A DNA stretch of 19,226 nt, taken from a virus (lineage: Duplodnaviria; Heunggongvirae; Uroviricota; Caudoviricetes). Position numbers and translations under genes: made by a program. The notes beneath the pieces were generated by a model. It was not told where the DNA came from. It worked only from the letters and a program-made list of their open reading frames with translations, and made no database searches. The stretch spans positions 1 to 19,226 of IMG/VR virus record IMGVR_UViG_2778261168_000002; one strand, written 5' to 3'. Below are positions 2,819 through 18,529 of this stretch, one piece after another (the first letter of the stretch is position 1; each line of letters begins with the position of its first letter).

Positions 2819-5462
2819 TTGCATACTCCTTAGCCCAGCGGGGCAGTGATAACGTCTTAATAGCTGGCCATTCATCGGTATTTAGGCAGTCAGCCAGGGT
2901 CCGCAGATTGCGGTGATATTCCTGCTGGCCTGCCAGTTTTGCTTCTTCGCCCATCATGAAAATCTCAACCGGATAACGTCCGCATTCAACAGTTGTGCTG
3001 GCAACCAGAAAAACGAAAGTTGGCTGCACACCAAACTGTGCTTCATAACCGTCACTGTAGAATGCATCCTGAACGTGATAGCGGTAGTCGTAATAAGACG
3101 TTTTGAATCGTTGAATATCCGCTGTGGTTTTCACGTCCATGATCCAGTGAAATTCAGGAATAATTTTGTCCGGACGGCACCGACACAAAATTCCTGTTTC
3201 CGGATCTTCCCAGTAAATTGATGATTCAGCGTGTCCGGCGCTTTCAACAAGCCATTGCCCCAGCGGCAAAGCCATAACGCTTTGATACATGAGTTCAATT
3301 TTCCGGCCTTCTTCCGCAGTGATAACCGTTTTTCCTGTGCTTGCGCATTCCATCAGAAACGCTTTCTCTTCTTCTTTTCCGGCGTTTGTACGGCGGTTAA
3401 ATTCAGGTGCTACGATAAAGCGGTTACTAAATTCTTCCGGTTCAAGTACCCGGCAGTGGAAAGCGGTTCCTAAATCGAGCGTTTTTGTCTTTGTAGTGTC
3501 CACGGGGGCATTTTTACGCCACAAATACAGTGCCGGAGTATCAGCAATGTCATCGAGCTGAGACTTACTGACACCGGGACCCGCGTGGTAATTCTCATTC
3601 GAAATTCCGTAATAAATACCTGGCTCTATGTCTTCTACGATTACGGGATCTGCGATTTCGCCAGTTTCATCACTGCAATCGCGATGCGGATCGCTGCCAG
3701 CATTCTCATTGTGCGGATGTTCAGCGCCTTCCATTTCCTCCGGATCTTTTTCCTTAGCTTCAACCTGATTCTCTTCACCGAATGTTTCCTGGTATGTTGC
3801 GTCGCCCATCACCGCACCACCGTCAGGGCAGTTATCCCCGCCAGTCTGACCGCAGGCATTGCAGACTATTTCCTGTTCCTGTTGCACTACTGGCTCAGGT
3901 TGTTTCGCATCCGGGCTGATTATTTCCGTTTCTGGCTGGTTCTGATACACAGAATCGCGAGTCTGGATCCCCTTAACCCATTTCGGATCGTTCGGGTCGC
4001 TAATTCCGTCAACAAATTCACCACGTGATGCAGCAAGCAATTTATCGGCATCGACAGGATTTTTTGATGGAATGTTTTTCCTGGCTTCATGGAGTTCTGC
4101 CCGCAGTTCCTGATATTTCGCATCAACAGAATTTACCTGTGACTGAGCATCCATCGGCTGCGTGTTCTGATGATGTTCAGTTGCATTCGGTTCCACTGTT
4201 TCAGCCGTTGCCTGTTCATCTGCCATTGCGCCAGATGGTTGTGGTTTTTCTTCATCGTCCTGTTTTCCTTCTTCTGTTACTCGCTGCGGCATCGGGGCCG
4301 AGGAGCGACCGCAGGCAATATCCACGATTTCCGGATCAGGGTTGGCATGATCGGTTTCAGTCAGTACTTTGTTCAGATATTCAGTGACGTGTGCGGGGAT
4401 GACCTCGATCCCAATTGGTGCTTCTTTCACGGACGCAACCACGATGGCGCGGGAATAATCCAGCCCGCCAGGCATGGTGATGAATTTGTCGCGGAAAACA
4501 GAAAAGGGTGGTTTATTTTCAGCGATAATTTCCTCAATGCGTTTAGCGTGTGCCGGATGAAGGTTATAGATGTCCACGTCCATTGAACGGGCCAGTACGC
4601 CAGTGGCTACATCGCGCGCCAGTGACGTCAGATCGTGGACGAAACCTTCGCCGCGATCGGTGAGGTTCCCGCCGCCAGCATTAGCACCGGAAGCCGTGCG
4701 AGTGATGCGTGAAACACGATTCCCTTTTCGCCATTCTTTTGTCAGAAGACCGCGATCAATGTGTTCGGTATCCAGCCAGGCTGAAATGAAATTCTTAAAT
4801 TCATAGGGCTGATGTTTTTTCGTGATAGAGAACACTGCCTTAATTGCATCAGTCAGGCGGAGCAGGGCGGCATTATCCAGAGTTGTCAGTTCTGCCATGC
4901 TGCGTATGGCCAACAGCAGATTCTGGACATAGCTGTTTTCCTGATCCATCTCAAGAGCAGTAATGTGTTTGCGTTGTTCACGGGTGGCATGATGCAGGTA
5001 TTTTCGATCCCCGGCTGCATACGTAAAAATGTGCAGAAGACGCTGTGTGAACCGCAAAGTGGCTACAGAGACTTCGCAATCCTGGCAATCCTCGTGGGCG
5101 TCTGCCTGCGCGTTTTCTTCCTGGCCTCCCGTCGGTTCTTCGGTTTCCGGTGCATCCTCCTGATGGTGAACGTCGTCTGGCGCTGCTCCCGGTTTTAGTT
5201 CCCAGGTCATGGAGTCTTTGCTGAGTTGATAGCGTTCACTCCAGGTAAAATCGATCTCACCTTCAGGGGGAAGGTCATTAACGACAGGAAAATTCGTGGC
5301 AACAGCTTTAAAATAGTTGCTCAGTTTTTTACCTGACTTAACGATCAGGTAGTCCAGAGTGGCACAGGTTGATTCAAAATCGTCGCTTGCCCACAGGACG
5401 ACGTCAGGTTCACCGGATGATTTTTTCGCTTTCCGTAAAAGGAAGAGTGGTTTTGTGCTCAT
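2811..5462 (-). CDS. recE: RecE exodeoxyribonuclease VIII (883 aa)
   Basis: ORF track 2811..5462 minus; N-terminus [14 protein letters not shown] and C-terminal nuclease region match recalled RecE; GAGGT upstream of ATG at 5462. Confidence 0.9.
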
Positions 5463-7253: not shown

Positions 7254-7409
7254 TCACTCCGTTAATGTTTTGACCAACCAGCGACGCGCGCCACCTTCGG
7301 TTTTAAACGTTTTGCTTTTGGTATATGTCATGGCGGTGAATGTTCCATCCTGGTTGGGGAACACGCCGCACACCAGGGATTCGTTATTGCCGAGGTCGAT
7401 TTTTTGCAT
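7254..7409 (-). CDS. ydaF: YdaF-like small protein (51 aa, MQKIDLGNNESLVCGVFPNQDGTF...)
   Basis: Hand-translated from the minus strand; not in the ORF track at this frame and length; matches recalled YdaF. Confidence 0.6.
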   Translation of the reverse strand: MQKIDLGNNESLVCGVFPNQDGTFTAMTYTKSKTFKTEGGARRWLVKTLTE

Positions 7410-7419
7410 TTTTCGCACC

Positions 7420-7554
7420 TCACATTTTGTTGTTGCGGATAGAGGCTTCTGCCTGCCAGAGATCCCAGTCGTTGCTGCGTAGAGTCTGTACAGCCTGGCT
7501 GTAAGTGATATCGCAACAATCCATCAAATACTGAACTACTTCGTAATGCACCAT
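7420..7554 (-). CDS. ydaG: YdaG-like small protein (44 aa, MVHYEVVQYLMDCCDITYSQAVQTLRSNDWDLWQAEASIRNNKM)
   Basis: Hand-translated; GGGGAG Shine-Dalgarno upstream of ATG at 7554; matches recalled YdaG. Confidence 0.6.
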   Translation of the reverse strand: MVHYEVVQYLMDCCDITYSQAVQTLRSNDWDLWQAEASIRNNKM

Positions 7555-7620
7555 CTTATCTCTCCCCTTAACGCCGGGTGGCGGAACTAAAACCTACAGC
7601 GCCGTGCTGCTTCTGTAATA

Positions 7621-7649
7621 ATATTAGTTATGTTCATATTAATGATCAA
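7621..7649 (-). promoter_or_regulatory. Candidate leftward (PL-like) sigma70 promoter: TTGATC-N17-TAATAT on the minus strand
   Basis: Hexamers read on the reverse complement of 7621-7649; positioned upstream of ydaG; overlaps a TTATG/TTCATA motif resembling the half-sites of the palindrome at 8264-8282. Confidence 0.35.
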
Positions 7650-7742
7650 TAGAAATATGCATTTTGTTGATAAAAATGTACTATCCTAATGAAATTTTTA
7701 GTGTTTTTTTTGATAAAAAGTAAGGCGGGGCGGGCGGAGGGG

Positions 7743-7770
7743 ACAAAAAAAACCGCCAAAAATGGCGGTT
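7743..7770 (-). terminator. Rho-independent terminator downstream of racR (hairpin AACCGCC-aaaaa-TGGCGGTT with a U-run on the minus strand)
   Basis: Inverted repeat 7751-7770 with an A-run 7745-7752 on the plus strand, i.e. a T-run after the hairpin on the minus strand. Confidence 0.6.
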
Positions 7771-7790
7771 TAGTTACGAGGTGGTGGGAG

Positions 7791-8255
7791 CTATTTCTTC
7801 ATGCGTTTTTGAGCTGCCAGCATATTTTCAAATGCTTCTTTGTAGAGTTCATTCTGACCTTTAAGTCTTTCGATTAGTTTTGCTTTTTCTGATTCGGGAA
7901 GGATATCAAAAAGATCTAGTAAATCAGCTTGTTGCTTGTTAACCATCCGCCAACCTTCGCCTTCGAAACTTTCGTCATAAGTTCCTGAGGAACGGACGTA
8001 ATTCATCAGATCAGCTAAATCAGGCCTCAACTCTTCAGGCTTAACTCTTAGTAATACAGCGAATTTTAATGCCGCATCAGTATTAAGTGGAGCCTTTCCG
8101 TTGAGATAATGGCTAACCGCAGATTGCGCCTCAAAACCCATTAGCTCGGCAGCAAGCTCCTGAGTCAGTTTGAGCTCTCTTTTTTTTGCATCCCAGATTG
8201 CGCGCAGACGTTGCGTAGCTTCCGGCGATGCGATTTCTTCGCGTTTTCTTCTCAT
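7791..8255 (-). CDS. racR: Prophage repressor RacR (154 aa), HTH DNA-binding
   Basis: ORF track 7791..8255 minus; matches recalled RacR; divergent from ydaS as expected for an immunity region. Confidence 0.85.
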   Translation of the reverse strand: MRRKREEIASPEATQRLRAIWDAKKRELKLTQELAAELMGFEAQSAVSHYLNGKAPLNTDAALKFAVLLRVKPEELRPDLADLMNYVRSSGTYDESFEGEGWRMVNKQQADLLDLFDILPESEKAKLIERLKGQNELYKEAFENMLAAQKRMKK

Positions 8256-8263
8256 ACCACCAT

Positions 8264-8282
8264 CTTATGAATACAGTTCATA
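8264..8282. promoter_or_regulatory. Candidate operator: inverted repeat TTATGAA-tacag-TTCATAA between racR and ydaS
   Basis: 7-bp arms with a 5-bp spacer read directly from the sequence. Confidence 0.4.
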
Positions 8283-8302
8283 ATCTCAAACTGATATAGG
8301 TA

Positions 8303-8331
8303 TTGATCATTTAAATTAGTATGGTTAATAT
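8303..8331 (+). promoter_or_regulatory. Candidate rightward (PR-like) sigma70 promoter TTGATC-N17-TAATAT driving ydaS-ydaT
   Basis: Same hexamer pair as the leftward candidate at 7621-7649; its -10 lies downstream of the ORF-track ATG at 8321, which argues for the 8360 start of ydaS. Confidence 0.4.
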
Positions 8332-8359
8332 TTTGGTGAGCATTACTAAGGTGACCCTT

Positions 8360-8635
8360 ATGACATTAGATGAATATTTGAAAAAAAATCGTGTACGACA
8401 GTCTTGTTTGGCCGCGCTGGCTGGTTGTTCGCAATCAATGATTAGCCTCGCTGCTACTGGACGTAGTCAGTTAAGCCCTGAAAAGGTATTGCGTATCGCA
8501 GAGGCTACGAATTTCGAGGTTACACCTCATGAACTCCGGCCTGATATCTACCCGAATCCGACCGATGGTTTACCTGTTGGATGTAAGGCTAACACACAAA
8601 ATACACAGGAGTTGATTCATGAAAATCAGGCATGA
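8360..8635 (+). CDS. ydaS: Cro-like HTH protein YdaS (91 aa from MTLDEYLKKNRV)
   Basis: AAGGTGA 6 nt upstream of ATG at 8360; HTH-like segment QSCLAALAGCSQSMIS; position immediately right of racR. Confidence 0.6.
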   Translation: MTLDEYLKKNRVRQSCLAALAGCSQSMISLAATGRSQLSPEKVLRIAEATNFEVTPHELRPDIYPNPTDGLPVGCKANTQNTQELIHENQA

Positions 8636-9041
8636 GCACATCGAATCAGTGCTGTTAGCCCTGGCAGCCGAAAAAGGGCAGGCGTGGGTCGCTAACGCAA
8701 TTACTGAAGAATATCTTCGCCAGGGGGGCGGCGAATTGCCCCTGGTACCAGGCAAGGACTGGAATAATCAGCAGAACATCTATCACCGTTGGTTAAAAGG
8801 TGAAACGGAAGTGCAAAGGGAAAAAATTCAGAAACTGATCCCAGCAATTCTGGCAATTCTTCCGCGCGAGCTGCGTCACCGACTCTGCATCTTCGATACC
8901 CTAGAACGCCGTGCATTACTGGCGGCGCAGGAAGCGTTGAGTACGGCAATTGATGCGCATGATGATGCAGTCCAGGCCGTTTACCGGAAAGCGCATTTCA
9001 GCGGCGGCGAGTCGTCCGGCGATTCTGTCGTAGTGCATTGA
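8619..9041 (+). CDS. ydaT: YdaT (140 aa), toxic partner of YdaS repressed by RacR
   Basis: ORF track 8619..9041; length and position match YdaT; ACAGGAG Shine-Dalgarno; 17-nt overlap with ydaS. Confidence 0.7.
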   Translation: MKIRHEHIESVLLALAAEKGQAWVANAITEEYLRQGGGELPLVPGKDWNNQQNIYHRWLKGETEVQREKIQKLIPAILAILPRELRHRLCIFDTLERRALLAAQEALSTAIDAHDDAVQAVYRKAHFSGGESSGDSVVVH

Positions 9042-16150: not shown

Positions 16151-17028
16151 ACGTCAGGAAAGCAGGGGAGAATGCTGCTAGTTGGGCAACTGGTCTTTCT
16201 GCTCCAAATTATAACAGAGACCAGTTATAGTTTCGGTGCTGTGTTTTTTTTACAATATTGTGATAACACATTGCTGGCGGGAGTTTTGATATTTCTTGGC
16301 AGGGGCTGATGATGCGTTATCCTGATGTCGTCAACTCATATAAAATGAGATGAGAGATCATTGCAGGGTGGTTTGTAATTCGCTGTTTAGCGGGACAATA
16401 TGTTGTCTGATACAAGACACCCGACGCCTCAGATTACTATAATAAAGACGAAGCATCCTTTGTATTGACCAACCGCCTGTTTAGGCGGTTCTTTTTGGGC
16501 TGGTTTATTGTATGCCAAATGATTATTAAAAAGGTTGTGTTAATAACAAAATCCGAAATAATATGCCTGCATATTTTTATCTTGCTTATATTCTGCATAT
16601 TGTGCATAGCAGGCTCATCCCTGCAATCAAAACTGTATGATGAGTATTTTTTGTTTTCCTTTTTTCCAGTCATCTGATGATGACCTGCTTCTTTTTAATC
16701 CGGATCGACATCAGTTTTTTAAGATAATTCCTGCGAGTTATATGCATAAATGCCACAAACTCCGCATTTTATGTGGTTGGGAGTTGCCGGGCGCGCAGTG
16801 AGTTTGCTAAGAAAACTCCTGCATGGTGAATCCCCCTGTGCGGTGGGGTGATACCATTAACCTTTTCTGTCGCCGACAGGTATCACGAACATTTTGTTCA
16901 CCGGGAGGCACCCGGCACCATGCACTTCAATAGATTCTCTCCACATTATGGATATTCTTTCAGAATATCCCACGCAGACTTTGTGTAAATGTTAACAAAT
17001 GTGCGTTTTATTTGATCTGATTCGCTGT

Positions 17029-18313: not shown

Positions 18314-18529
18314 ATGAAATCCATGGACAAAATTTCAACAGGCATTGCCTACGGCACCTCCGCAGGCAGTGCTGGCTACTGGTTTTTACAGTTGCTCGAT
18401 AGAGTAACTCCGTCACAGTGGGCTGCAATCGGTGTGCTGGGTAGTCTGGTATTTGGCCTGCTGACGTACCTGACAAACCTTTATTTCAAGATTAAAGAAG
18501 ATAAGCGCAAGGCTGCGAGAGGTGAATAA
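18314..18529 (+). CDS. Phage-21-type class II holin (pinholin S21-like, 71 aa from [10 protein letters not shown]; dual-start motif)
   Basis: Matches recalled S21; GGAGGTGAG Shine-Dalgarno; ORF track extends upstream from a GTG. Confidence 0.8.

Follow-up and report, generated by a model that had tools for sequence, protein, structure and literature searches.

The 19,226-nucleotide stretch of phage DNA analysed here (the window) contains a repressor gene enclosed by two promoter-like sequences with identical hexamers on opposite strands, raising the question of which repressor is encoded and what kind of switch it would operate. A sequence-only reading had called this gene racR and had likened its surroundings to the promoters PL and PR on either side of the cI gene of phage lambda. 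The latter comparison is supported. In the window, as in nearly identical loci with annotation, the leftward operon consists of ydaG, ydaF, kilR, recE/recT, and xis/int, and the rightward genes are a cro-like gene, a cII-like ydaT, and replication genes (Table 1; locus L001 is 99.4% identical to the window locus). This distribution of kil, recombination, and xis-int genes to the left and cro, cII, and replication genes to the right is that of a lambdoid region. Similarly, the repressor and cro-like genes are divergent and enclose a control region of ~100 bp, as in lambdoid phages. The region is interpreted, with a probability of about three in four, as the on/off immunity module that controls lysogeny in a Rac-like lambdoid prophage, with ttcA as the integration site. 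Among 5,426 complete genomes of E. coli, about 75, including many from STEC strains, carry this immunity type. The arrangement as such is ordinary, but the particular repressor and its sites appear to be undescribed. A search of Rfam gave no match in the immunity region, RalA and STnc100 being the only matches elsewhere in the window.

Table 1. Genes and candidate regulatory features of the immunity region (positions in the window)
Feature	Positions	Strand	Details
ydaF	7254-7418	-	After the ydaG-like ORF; DUF1391 Pfam match
ydaG-like ORF	7420-7554	-	44 aa; first gene of the predicted PL operon; ORF list and annotation of locus L001
Predicted PL-like promoter	7621-7649	-	-35 TTGATC (7649-7644), 17-nt spacer ATTAATATGAACATAAC, -10 TAATAT (7626-7621)
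Candidate operator OL1	7622-7638	.	TATTAGTTATGTTCATA; overlaps the PL spacer by 12 nt and the -10 by 5 nt
Candidate operator OL2	7656-7672	.	TATGCATTTTGTTGATA; 5' of the PL -35; centre 34 bp from that of OL1
Predicted intrinsic terminator of the repressor gene	7750-7771	-	AAACCGCCATTTTTGGCGGTTT followed by a T run; terminator scan; 9-bp stem
Immunity repressor gene	7791-8255	-	154 aa; CI-type HTH, basic arm, helical tail
Predicted PRM-like promoter	8262-8289	-	-35 TTGAGA (8289-8284), 16-nt spacer, -10 TAAGAT (8267-8262)
Candidate operator, OR3 position	8266-8282	.	TATGAATACAGTTCATA; perfect 6-5-6 palindrome; 19-bp form at 8265-8283
Predicted PR-like promoter	8303-8331	+	-35 TTGATC (8303-8308), 17-nt spacer ATTTAAATTAGTATGGT, -10 TAATAT (8326-8331)
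Candidate operator, OR1 position	8314-8330	.	AATTAGTATGGTTAATA; over the PR spacer and -10
Cro-like (ydaS-like) HTH gene	8360-8635	+	91 aa; Pfam YdaS_toxin and HTH_3
YdaT-box	8612-8629	+	TTGATT-CATGAA-AATCAG; across the ydaT start codon (8619)

The repressor consists of a basic N-terminal arm (MRRKR), a helix-turn-helix domain (residues ~12-82) homologous to the N-terminal domain of lambda CI, and a helical C-terminal part of ~65 amino acids. Its start is conserved in the family alignment A1. A phmmer search against the PDB matched it with the lambda CI N-terminal domain (E-values of 5.5e-9 to 4e-7), the identity with the DNA-binding domain of CI being 34-42% over ~80 amino acids. Likewise, a Foldseek search with an AlphaFold2 model gave as best matches the lambda CI N-terminal domain structures 1lli, 3kz3, and 1lmb, with target-normalised TM-scores of 0.76-0.82. 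Both searches place the DNA-binding domain in the HTH class of CI, 434, and P22. Furthermore, equivalents of lambda Gln33, Gln44, Ser45, and Asn52 are kept, as judged by hand from the phmmer alignment and the 1LMB complex. Pfam recognised HTH_3 and HTH_31 only, and the model contains nothing but helices beyond residue 90; neither revealed an S24 peptidase domain, which confers RecA-stimulated autocleavage on repressors of the lambda, 434, and P22 type. This indicates that induction, if any, would not proceed via RecA-stimulated self-cleavage. Two distant relatives, P0034 and P0035, do have PF00717. The S24 domain is not universal among lambdoid repressors, as it is also absent from PaaR2 and RacR. 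Hairpins comparable to the predicted terminator of the repressor gene occur 3' of the stop codon in relatives.

An alternative, considered improbable, is that of a K-12-type racR that silences a toxic ydaS-ydaT pair, making the locus a repressor-toxin addiction module with the palindrome next to the repressor gene as a RacR operator. The gene indeed occupies the position of racR in the Rac prophage of K-12, racR is essential in that strain (PMC5700373, PMC5700377), the neighbouring genes match Pfam families named YdaS_toxin and YdaT_toxin, and YdaT of the window shares 95% identity with its K-12 homologue, whose expression is toxic (PMC11014345). However, K-12 RacR (b1356) shows no similarity to the repressor (BLASTP E-value of 4.5 over 7 residues), which already refutes the homology part of this alternative. 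Also, the K-12 locus (L002) contains five (T/A)TAGGC-n3-GCCTA(T/A) sites, whereas neither control region of the window has any, the lone match, with two mismatches, being located at position 18338. The Cro-like protein and K-12 YdaS are distant relatives, with only 42% identity over 50 amino acids. Moreover, YdaS and YdaT have been argued, and for prophage CP-933P of E. coli O157:H7 shown, to be analogues of Cro and CII rather than a toxin-antitoxin pair (PMC5917428, PMC8630535), and conditional essentiality is a property of any prophage repressor keeping kil-type genes in check. Judged by homology and by the lack of RacR-type operators in both intergenic regions, the gene between the two promoters is a relative of lambda cI and not racR. 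The addiction statement, which carries K-12 knowledge on an unrelated repressor over to this locus, is unsupported.

The promoters PL, PR, and PRM are predicted from consensus matches and conservation. The identical TTGATC-N17-TAATAT sequences on opposite strands were found as previously described. Exactly two matches occur in the 19 kb of the window, and still two when one mismatch is allowed, compared with expectations of 0.00 and 0.17, respectively, in 200 dinucleotide-preserving shuffles. As part of an inverted repeat of 39 nt (7620-7658 and 8294-8332; 72% complementary), both have TATTGATCATT and TAATATT in common. The pair was not listed by a simple sigma-70 scanner, as its score of 8/12 against the consensus falls below the threshold of 9/12. 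Transcription would start near 7614 from PL and near 8338 from PR. An identical PR pattern is present at the matching position in seven loci (L001, L003, L004, L005, L025, L026, and L027), down to a repressor identity of 65%, and the PL geometry and TAATAT -10 hexamer also occur downstream of the repressor gene in L003, L026, L006-L009, and L011. In alignment A2, ATATTA and GATCAA are invariant. A possible attenuator was rejected, as the folding of the PL leader, with its terminator-like hairpin just 3' of the PL start (7610-7596), is no better than that of shuffles (z = +0.73).

The putative PRM-like promoter scored 9/12 in the promoter scan. As its -10 hexamer ends 6 nt before the repressor ATG, the predicted transcription start is the A of this ATG (8255), about 83 bp from the predicted PR start, and the repressor mRNA is predicted to be leaderless. 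Nearly all relatives have a -10-like hexamer 6 (+/- 1) nt 5' of the repressor ATG, without a Shine-Dalgarno sequence. Experimental precedents for leaderless repressor mRNAs are those of lambda cI and PaaR2 of CP-933P (PMC8630535). An exact 11-mer, CACCATCTTAT, occurs at both gene starts (7549-7559 and 8258-8268); it is likely a coincidence, since a rough calculation indicates that an exact repeat of that length could occur by chance in ~1.1 kb.

The candidate operators have a common form of 17 bp (6-5-6), roughly TAT[G/T]AA-N5-TT[C/A]ATA, and are found on both sides of the repressor gene, two per side, overlapping PR, PRM, and PL. The first one is the perfect palindrome at the OR3 position, which had been noticed earlier as TTATGAA-tacag-TTCATAA, one base off (8264-8282 instead of 8265-8283), and had been ascribed to RacR; its role as an operator is supported, but not for RacR, of which the repressor is no homologue. 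Its centre is located 19 bp 5' of the repressor ATG, within the PRM spacer and -10, and about 64 bp 5' of the position where PR transcription would start, without overlapping PR. The arms are kept and the centre is variable in L003 (TATGAGCCACATTCATA) and L004 (TATGAACTACATTCATA), and a 17-mer ending in ATA is present at this position in 13 relatives. When the palindrome consensus was scanned against the entire window, just two non-seed matches of at least 10/12 emerged, namely OL1 and OL2, both in the 50 bp around PL, compared with 1.46 such matches expected anywhere in the 19 kb. OL1 matches TATGAA-N5-TTCATA in 10/12 positions, and a 17-mer is conserved in that register in relatives. The leftward TTATG/TTCATA motif reported before (7628-7638) is a real sequence that is better parsed as part of this 17-mer; read as TTATG abutting TTCATA, its spacing is unlike that of the palindrome, and the 6-5-6 frame fits better. 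In relatives, the second left site lies 31-36 bp from the first one (47 bp in L011). The sole polymorphism within the candidate operators among E. coli variants concerns the central base of OL2 (7665); over the repressor gene and the right-hand intergenic DNA, these variants do not differ and thus carry no information on constraint.

The site at the OR1 position, a weaker one at PR that the sequence-only reading did not recognise, is the least certain. It scores 8/12 against the strict palindrome consensus, as do 86 frames in the window, and is not significant by itself; its position and the family comparison argue for it. Its register relative to the -10 matches that of OL1 at PL, and it is concentric with a perfect palindrome, ATTAAT-ATG-ATTAAT, in L004 and L026. 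The half-sites at this position are clade-specific (TTCATA in L025 and CGAATA in L008-L011). More generally, 13-15 related loci have 17-mers with TAT...ATA ends centred near positions -19 and -67 relative to the repressor ATG and two more sites over or upstream of a PL-like promoter, with half-sites differing by clade (TATGAA, TATTCG, and TATT[G/T]G). The OR1 and OR3 positions covary to a modest extent, as the observed value is attained in 32 of 720 permutations, with related loci. Neither side yielded a third operator such as lambda has. A site at the lambda OR2 position (~-43; 8290-8306) falls below the listing threshold of 7/12 (about 5/12 by hand count), no frame near -43 is better, and the highest score in the gap is no more than 7/12 (8295-8311; centred about -48), leaving lambda-style activation of PRM without a visible site. 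Two further constructions were discarded. In one of them, TATTGATCATT, common to both promoters, was taken as the basis of second 17-mers abutting the promoter-proximal operators (8295-8311 and 7641-7657); both score only 7/12, the left one overlapping OL2 and the inner half being unconserved at PL in L003 and L004. A degenerate consensus giving three 12/12 matches was derived from the same three sites and, being circular, was not used as evidence.

That the hexamers and the palindrome arose by chance in AT-rich intergenic DNA, or are a duplication relic, without any regulatory role, is very hard to reconcile with these data. It is true that the intergenic DNA is AT-rich, that promoter-like sites found by the simple scanner are no more numerous than in shuffles, and that short two-copy repeats are common in the region. 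Nevertheless, the shuffles contain no exact match to the promoter pattern, the PR pattern persists in seven loci, the operators keep their positions in different genera but vary in their half-sites, and both 10/12 operator matches fall at PL.

Possibly, although this is rather doubtful, the Cro-like protein is the main ligand of the palindrome, from which it would stop the synthesis of the repressor in the way of Cro at lambda OR3, and the repressor prefers the weaker, T-type sites at PR and PL, so that both proteins would use the same operators with opposite orders of preference. This would agree with the location of the palindrome within the PRM spacer and -10, with half-site position 4, being G,G in the palindrome versus T,T in the PR site, and with CP-933P, where YdaS represses PRM more and PaaR2 represses PR more (PMC8630535). 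However, OL1 and OL2 carry G-type half-sites too, and K-12 YdaS did not repress racR (PMC9638921).

The start of the cro-like gene at 8360, as proposed before, is supported by a Shine-Dalgarno sequence (AAGGTG; 8348-8353) six bases 5' of it and by the same start in the PGAP annotation of strains STEC309, 155, and JNU. It leaves a gap of 104 nt to the repressor gene, compared with 106 nt in the gene calls of three relatives. The ATG at 8321 lies 5' of the predicted PR -10 and lacks a Shine-Dalgarno sequence.

Compared with K-12 Rac, the prophage in the window shares the backbone, the integration site, the gene order, YdaT, and a YdaT-box at the ydaT start. The latter has one mismatch to TTGATT-N6-AATCAA, as found by pattern search, and its K-12 equivalent has been footprinted (PMC11879457). 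Like the candidate operators of the window, those of K-12 lie on both sides of the repressor gene, but they are of a form of their own, (T/A)TAGGC-n3-GCCTA(T/A), with O3 overlapping the racR start codon and three racR promoters mapped (PMC9638921, PMC11014345, PMC11879457); depletion of RacR derepressed ydaG, ydaF, and kilR 40-70-fold (PMC11014345). The immunity type of the prophage in the window thus differs from that of K-12 Rac, and a third one is present in strain IrN. As the window and K-12 Rac have unrelated repressors and distant Cro-like proteins but nearly identical YdaT proteins, sequence comparison indicates that an immunity module (~7592-8610) is swapped within the Rac-like prophage, with the YdaT-box at its right-hand border. 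CP-933P resembles the window in having a non-S24 HTH repressor (PaaR2, compared by description), a Cro-like YdaS, and a CII-like YdaT. Its repressor mRNA is leaderless, as determined by 5' RACE, and its well-conserved palindromes cover PRM and PR, with degenerate ones in between (PMC8630535). Differences are its four 18-bp palindromic operators with half-site GTTTAGTAA, as opposed to 17-bp 6-5-6 sites, and the paaA2-parE2 toxin-antitoxin genes that follow PaaR2; no genes of this type follow the repressor gene in the window, which is directly followed by its predicted terminator.

From the sequence features, homology, gene order, and conserved site positions, we infer a promoter use, transcription starts, pairing of proteins with sites, and switch logic as follows. 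A weak PRM-like promoter would give a leaderless mRNA for the 154-amino acid repressor, which would bind as a dimer, through its lambda CI-type DNA-binding domain, to 17-bp 6-5-6 operators with half-sites of roughly TAT[G/T]AA. One operator, over the PR spacer and -10, would control the cro-like gene, the cII-like ydaT, and the replication genes; two others, over or just 5' of PL, would control ydaG, ydaF, kilR, recET, and xis-int. The TAATAT -10 hexamers of PL and PR may double as operator half-sites (TATTA-), which would account for their conservation. Occupancy of the best operator, the perfect palindrome inside PRM, would shut off repressor synthesis, either through autoregulation by the repressor or through the Cro-like protein, as at lambda OR3.

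This scheme resembles lambda in several respects, namely the CI-homologous domain, the 17-bp candidate operators with TAT- outer ends, the predicted leaderless repressor mRNA, and the functions headed by PL (kil, recombination, and xis-int) and PR (cro, a cII analogue, and replication genes). Similarly, the operator centres near -19 and -67 relative to the repressor start, together with a predicted distance of ~83 bp between the divergent starts, are like the OR3 and OR1 centres and the PR/PRM spacing of lambda. In contrast, lambda CI has an S24 C-terminal domain instead of a short helical tail, the window has only two recognisable operators per side and no visible OR2, its best operator is on PRM instead of PR, YdaT fills the cII position, and no N homologue was identified. 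A strongest site on PRM would be unusual if the repressor were its main ligand. Tentatively, and at somewhat less than even odds, the module may represent a simplified, SOS-independent lambda switch and an uncharacterised lambdoid immunity type of Enterobacterales prophages, combining a CI-like domain with a short helical oligomerisation tail, two right operators 48 bp apart without OR2, -10 hexamers serving as half-sites, and the highest-affinity site on a leaderless promoter. Enterobacterales with the proposed type would include Escherichia, Salmonella, Hafnia, Enterobacter, Serratia, Yersinia, and others. The induction signal of such a switch could be an antirepressor, or there may be none.

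The scope of these findings is modest, as they open no new kind of biology. They provide a concrete, testable map of operators and promoters for this immunity type, and a natural case for comparison, in which to ask to what extent a working switch depends on the three operators and the cleavable repressor of the lambda OR design. In addition, they correct an annotation habit: a gene that takes the place of racR in a Rac-like prophage is not always racR itself, so that the K-12 results on essentiality, operators, and cross-talk are not transferable to such genes.

Judged by its sequence features, the region around the repressor gene is a lambdoid immunity region of the ordinary sort; its particular type appears to be previously uncharacterised. 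The sequence-only reading, which had compared it with lambda PL and PR around cI, was right in outline; the gene name (racR) and the role given to a palindrome (RacR operator) are not supported. No similarity to K-12 RacR could be detected in the 154-aa repressor (7791-8255, minus), and the RacR operator consensus is missing from the two control regions of the window, versus five copies in K-12. Residues 12-82 match the N-terminal domain of lambda CI (E 5.5e-9 to 4e-7, PDB chains), structures of which were the best Foldseek matches of an AlphaFold2 model (mean pLDDT 78). A PDB alignment, compared with the 1LMB complex, gives the repressor equivalents of lambda Gln33, Gln44, Ser45 and Asn52. 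Its N-terminal arm is basic (MRRKR) and the part past residue 90 is helical in the model. No S24 peptidase domain was found in it by Pfam; two distant relatives possess one. The family is small (37 clusters, Enterobacterales only).

The two identical promoter-like sites described as flanking this gene, PL toward ydaG and PR toward the cro-like gene, were retrieved as exact matches. No further match, with up to one mismatch, occurred in the 19,226-bp window, and no exact match in 200 dinucleotide-preserving shuffles (expected number with one mismatch, 0.17). The likeness reaches past the hexamers, as 7620-7658 and 8294-8332 form a 39-nt inverted repeat (72% complementary), both arms of which contain TATTGATCATT and TAATATT. 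The TAATAT -10 is nearly universal in the repressor family, at PL and PR alike, probably because it overlaps the candidate operator half-site TATTA-. The TTGATC -35 is kept at PR in seven loci and at PL in only two. Both -35 hexamers (7644-7649 and 8303-8308) contain the Dam site GATC. Since 8 of 16 related loci retain TTGATC at the PR position, although TTGACA would make a better -35, the Dam methylation state might, speculatively, influence promoter strength.

Candidate control elements of the immunity region
Feature	Position	Strand	Remarks
PL-like promoter, TTGATC-N17-TAATAT	7649..7621	minus	exact pattern match
PR-like promoter, TTGATC-N17-TAATAT	8303-8331	plus	exact pattern match
PRM-like promoter (repressor gene's own), TTGAGA-16-TAAGAT	8289..8262	minus	ends 6 nt before repressor ATG
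Candidate left operator OL1	7622-7638		at least 10/12; overlaps 12 nt of PL spacer and 5 nt of -10
Candidate left operator OL2	7656-7672		at least 10/12; at left promoter
Candidate PR site, AATTAGTATGGTTAATA	8314-8330		8/12 only; same register as OL1 at PL
YdaT-box-like site, TTGATT-CATGAA-AATCAG	8612-8629		spans ydaT start codon; one mismatch to TTGATT-N6-AATCAA

The palindrome TTATGAAtacagTTCATAA is real; its coordinates are 8265-8283, the published reading having set it one base too far left. It is not the PR operator and is located within the repressor's own predicted promoter. The -10-like hexamer 6 nt from the repressor ATG recurs in nearly all relatives and no Shine-Dalgarno sequence precedes this ATG, so that a leaderless repressor mRNA is predicted. 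If the first base of the repressor start codon (8255) is taken as +1, the centres of the palindrome and the PR site fall at -19 and -67, close to those of lambda OR3 and OR1, and the distance to the predicted PR start is about 83 bp, near the value for the lambda PR/PRM pair. No OR2-like site was recognisable at about -43, where the frame falls below the 7/12 listing threshold (about 5/12 by hand count). Experiments have demonstrated leaderless mRNAs in the case of lambda cI and of PaaR2 from CP-933P, a prophage that also has a non-cleavable repressor and palindromes on PRM and PR (PMC8630535).

A scan of the whole window, seeded solely with the 17-bp core of the palindrome (TATGAA-N5-TTCATA), returned only two other frames scoring at least 10/12, OL1 and OL2, both at the left promoter, with 1.46 such frames expected anywhere in 19 kb. 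The PR site is most divergent within the window's own clade; in two relatives (L004 and L026), a perfect palindrome, ATTAAT-ATG-ATTAAT, is concentric with its frame. Furthermore, in 13-15 related loci (Salmonella, Hafnia, E. albertii, Serratia, Raoultella, Citrobacter, Shimwellia, Rouxiella and Yersinia), 17-mers of the form TAT...ATA are found at constant positions, beginning on the right side at -27/-28 and -75/-77 from the repressor ATG and on the left side as two copies beyond the end of the repressor gene, separated by 31-36 bp (47 bp in L011). Their half-site is TATGAA, TATTCG or TATT[G/T]G according to clade, and a permutation test for matching half-sites at the two right-hand positions was only modestly significant (32/720). 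The palindrome arms are kept around a variable centre (ACTGT in the window, GCCAC in L003, ACTAC in L004). The candidate operators of E. coli variants differ at a single position, the base at the centre of OL2.

The proposed start of the cro-like ('ydaS'-like) gene at 8360 is supported by an AAGGTG Shine-Dalgarno sequence 6 nt ahead, a Pfam HTH match beginning at residue 5, equivalent PGAP starts in three strains, a 106-nt gap to the repressor gene in the gene calls of three relatives, and the position of the 8321 ATG upstream of the predicted PR -10. In the window, this ORF and the ydaT start overlap by 17 nt (8619-8635); the gene annotated in STEC309 is shorter (249 nt) and stops before ydaT. 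The YdaT-box TTGATT-N6-AATCAA has been footprinted in K-12 and CP-933P. As the candidate box at the ydaT start lies just outside the swapped module, the YdaT autoregulatory site would travel with ydaT.

On the left, the leader past the PL start (7574-7611, minus; CAGCACGGCGCTGTAGGTTTTAGTTCCGCCACCCGGCG) is conserved across immunity types. Downstream of PL, more distant relatives (L003-L013) contain GTTCTGAC and then a short hairpin whose loop is GAAAGA, resembling boxA/boxB nut sites; the PL leader of the window folded no better than shuffles. The 5' ends of ydaG (7549-7559) and the repressor gene (8258-8268) share an exact 11-mer, CACCATCTTAT (coding strand, ATAAGATGGTG), probably by coincidence; at the latter it would give a three-codon mini-ORF, ATG GTG GTA TGA. 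Elsewhere in the prophage, Rfam matches were the RalA antitoxin sRNA (218 bits) and STnc100 (87 bits), at 1557-1735 and 16791-16977.

K-12 Rac has a two-sided design like that of the window, built of unrelated parts. RacR-consensus operators were footprinted in its racR-ydaS region (PMC9638921), and our own scan found such operators on the ydaG side, beside a TTGACA-17-TATAGT promoter. At 3120-3170 of the MG1655 locus, the inverted repeats ATAGGTAATGCCTAA and ATAGGCTATGCCTAA surround this promoter, which faces ydaG. Judged by their sequence, the ydaG-side repeats would be a left operator, of which there is no mention under 'ydaG' in PMC9638921 and PMC11879457. Conditional essentiality is a general trait of prophage repressors, and any one restraining kilR and ydaT would show it. 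RacR depletion raises ydaG, ydaF, kilR and others 40-70-fold (PMC11014345). The 'addiction' reading originates in K-12 work (PMC5700373, PMC5700377) and is contested, YdaS and YdaT being regarded as Cro and CII analogues (PMC5917428, PMC8630535); its application to the window is a transfer from K-12 and is not supported.

The window belongs to a lambdoid prophage of Rac-like type, integrated at ttcA, with the gene order intR, xisR, ralR, recT, recE, ydaE, kilR, sieB, ydaF, ydaG, then ydaT, ydaU, ydaV. Its part 7400-8700 shares 99.4% identity with E. coli STEC309 and was found, at a coverage of at least 80%, in only 75 of 5,426 complete E. coli genomes. Similarity with K-12 Rac ends at about 7592, shortly past the PL start, and returns at the ydaS/ydaT junction (about 8610, the ydaT start); YdaT is 95% identical to that of K-12 and the cro-like protein 42% over 50 aa. 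A third immunity type, with a 139-aa HTH protein, occupies the same backbone in strain IrN. The swapped unit comprises PL/OL, repressor, PR/OR and cro, and so corresponds to the 'imm' cassette classically known from lambdoid phages. In Rac-like prophages, at least three unrelated repressor types, namely K-12 RacR, the CI-like protein and the IrN HTH protein, fill this slot.
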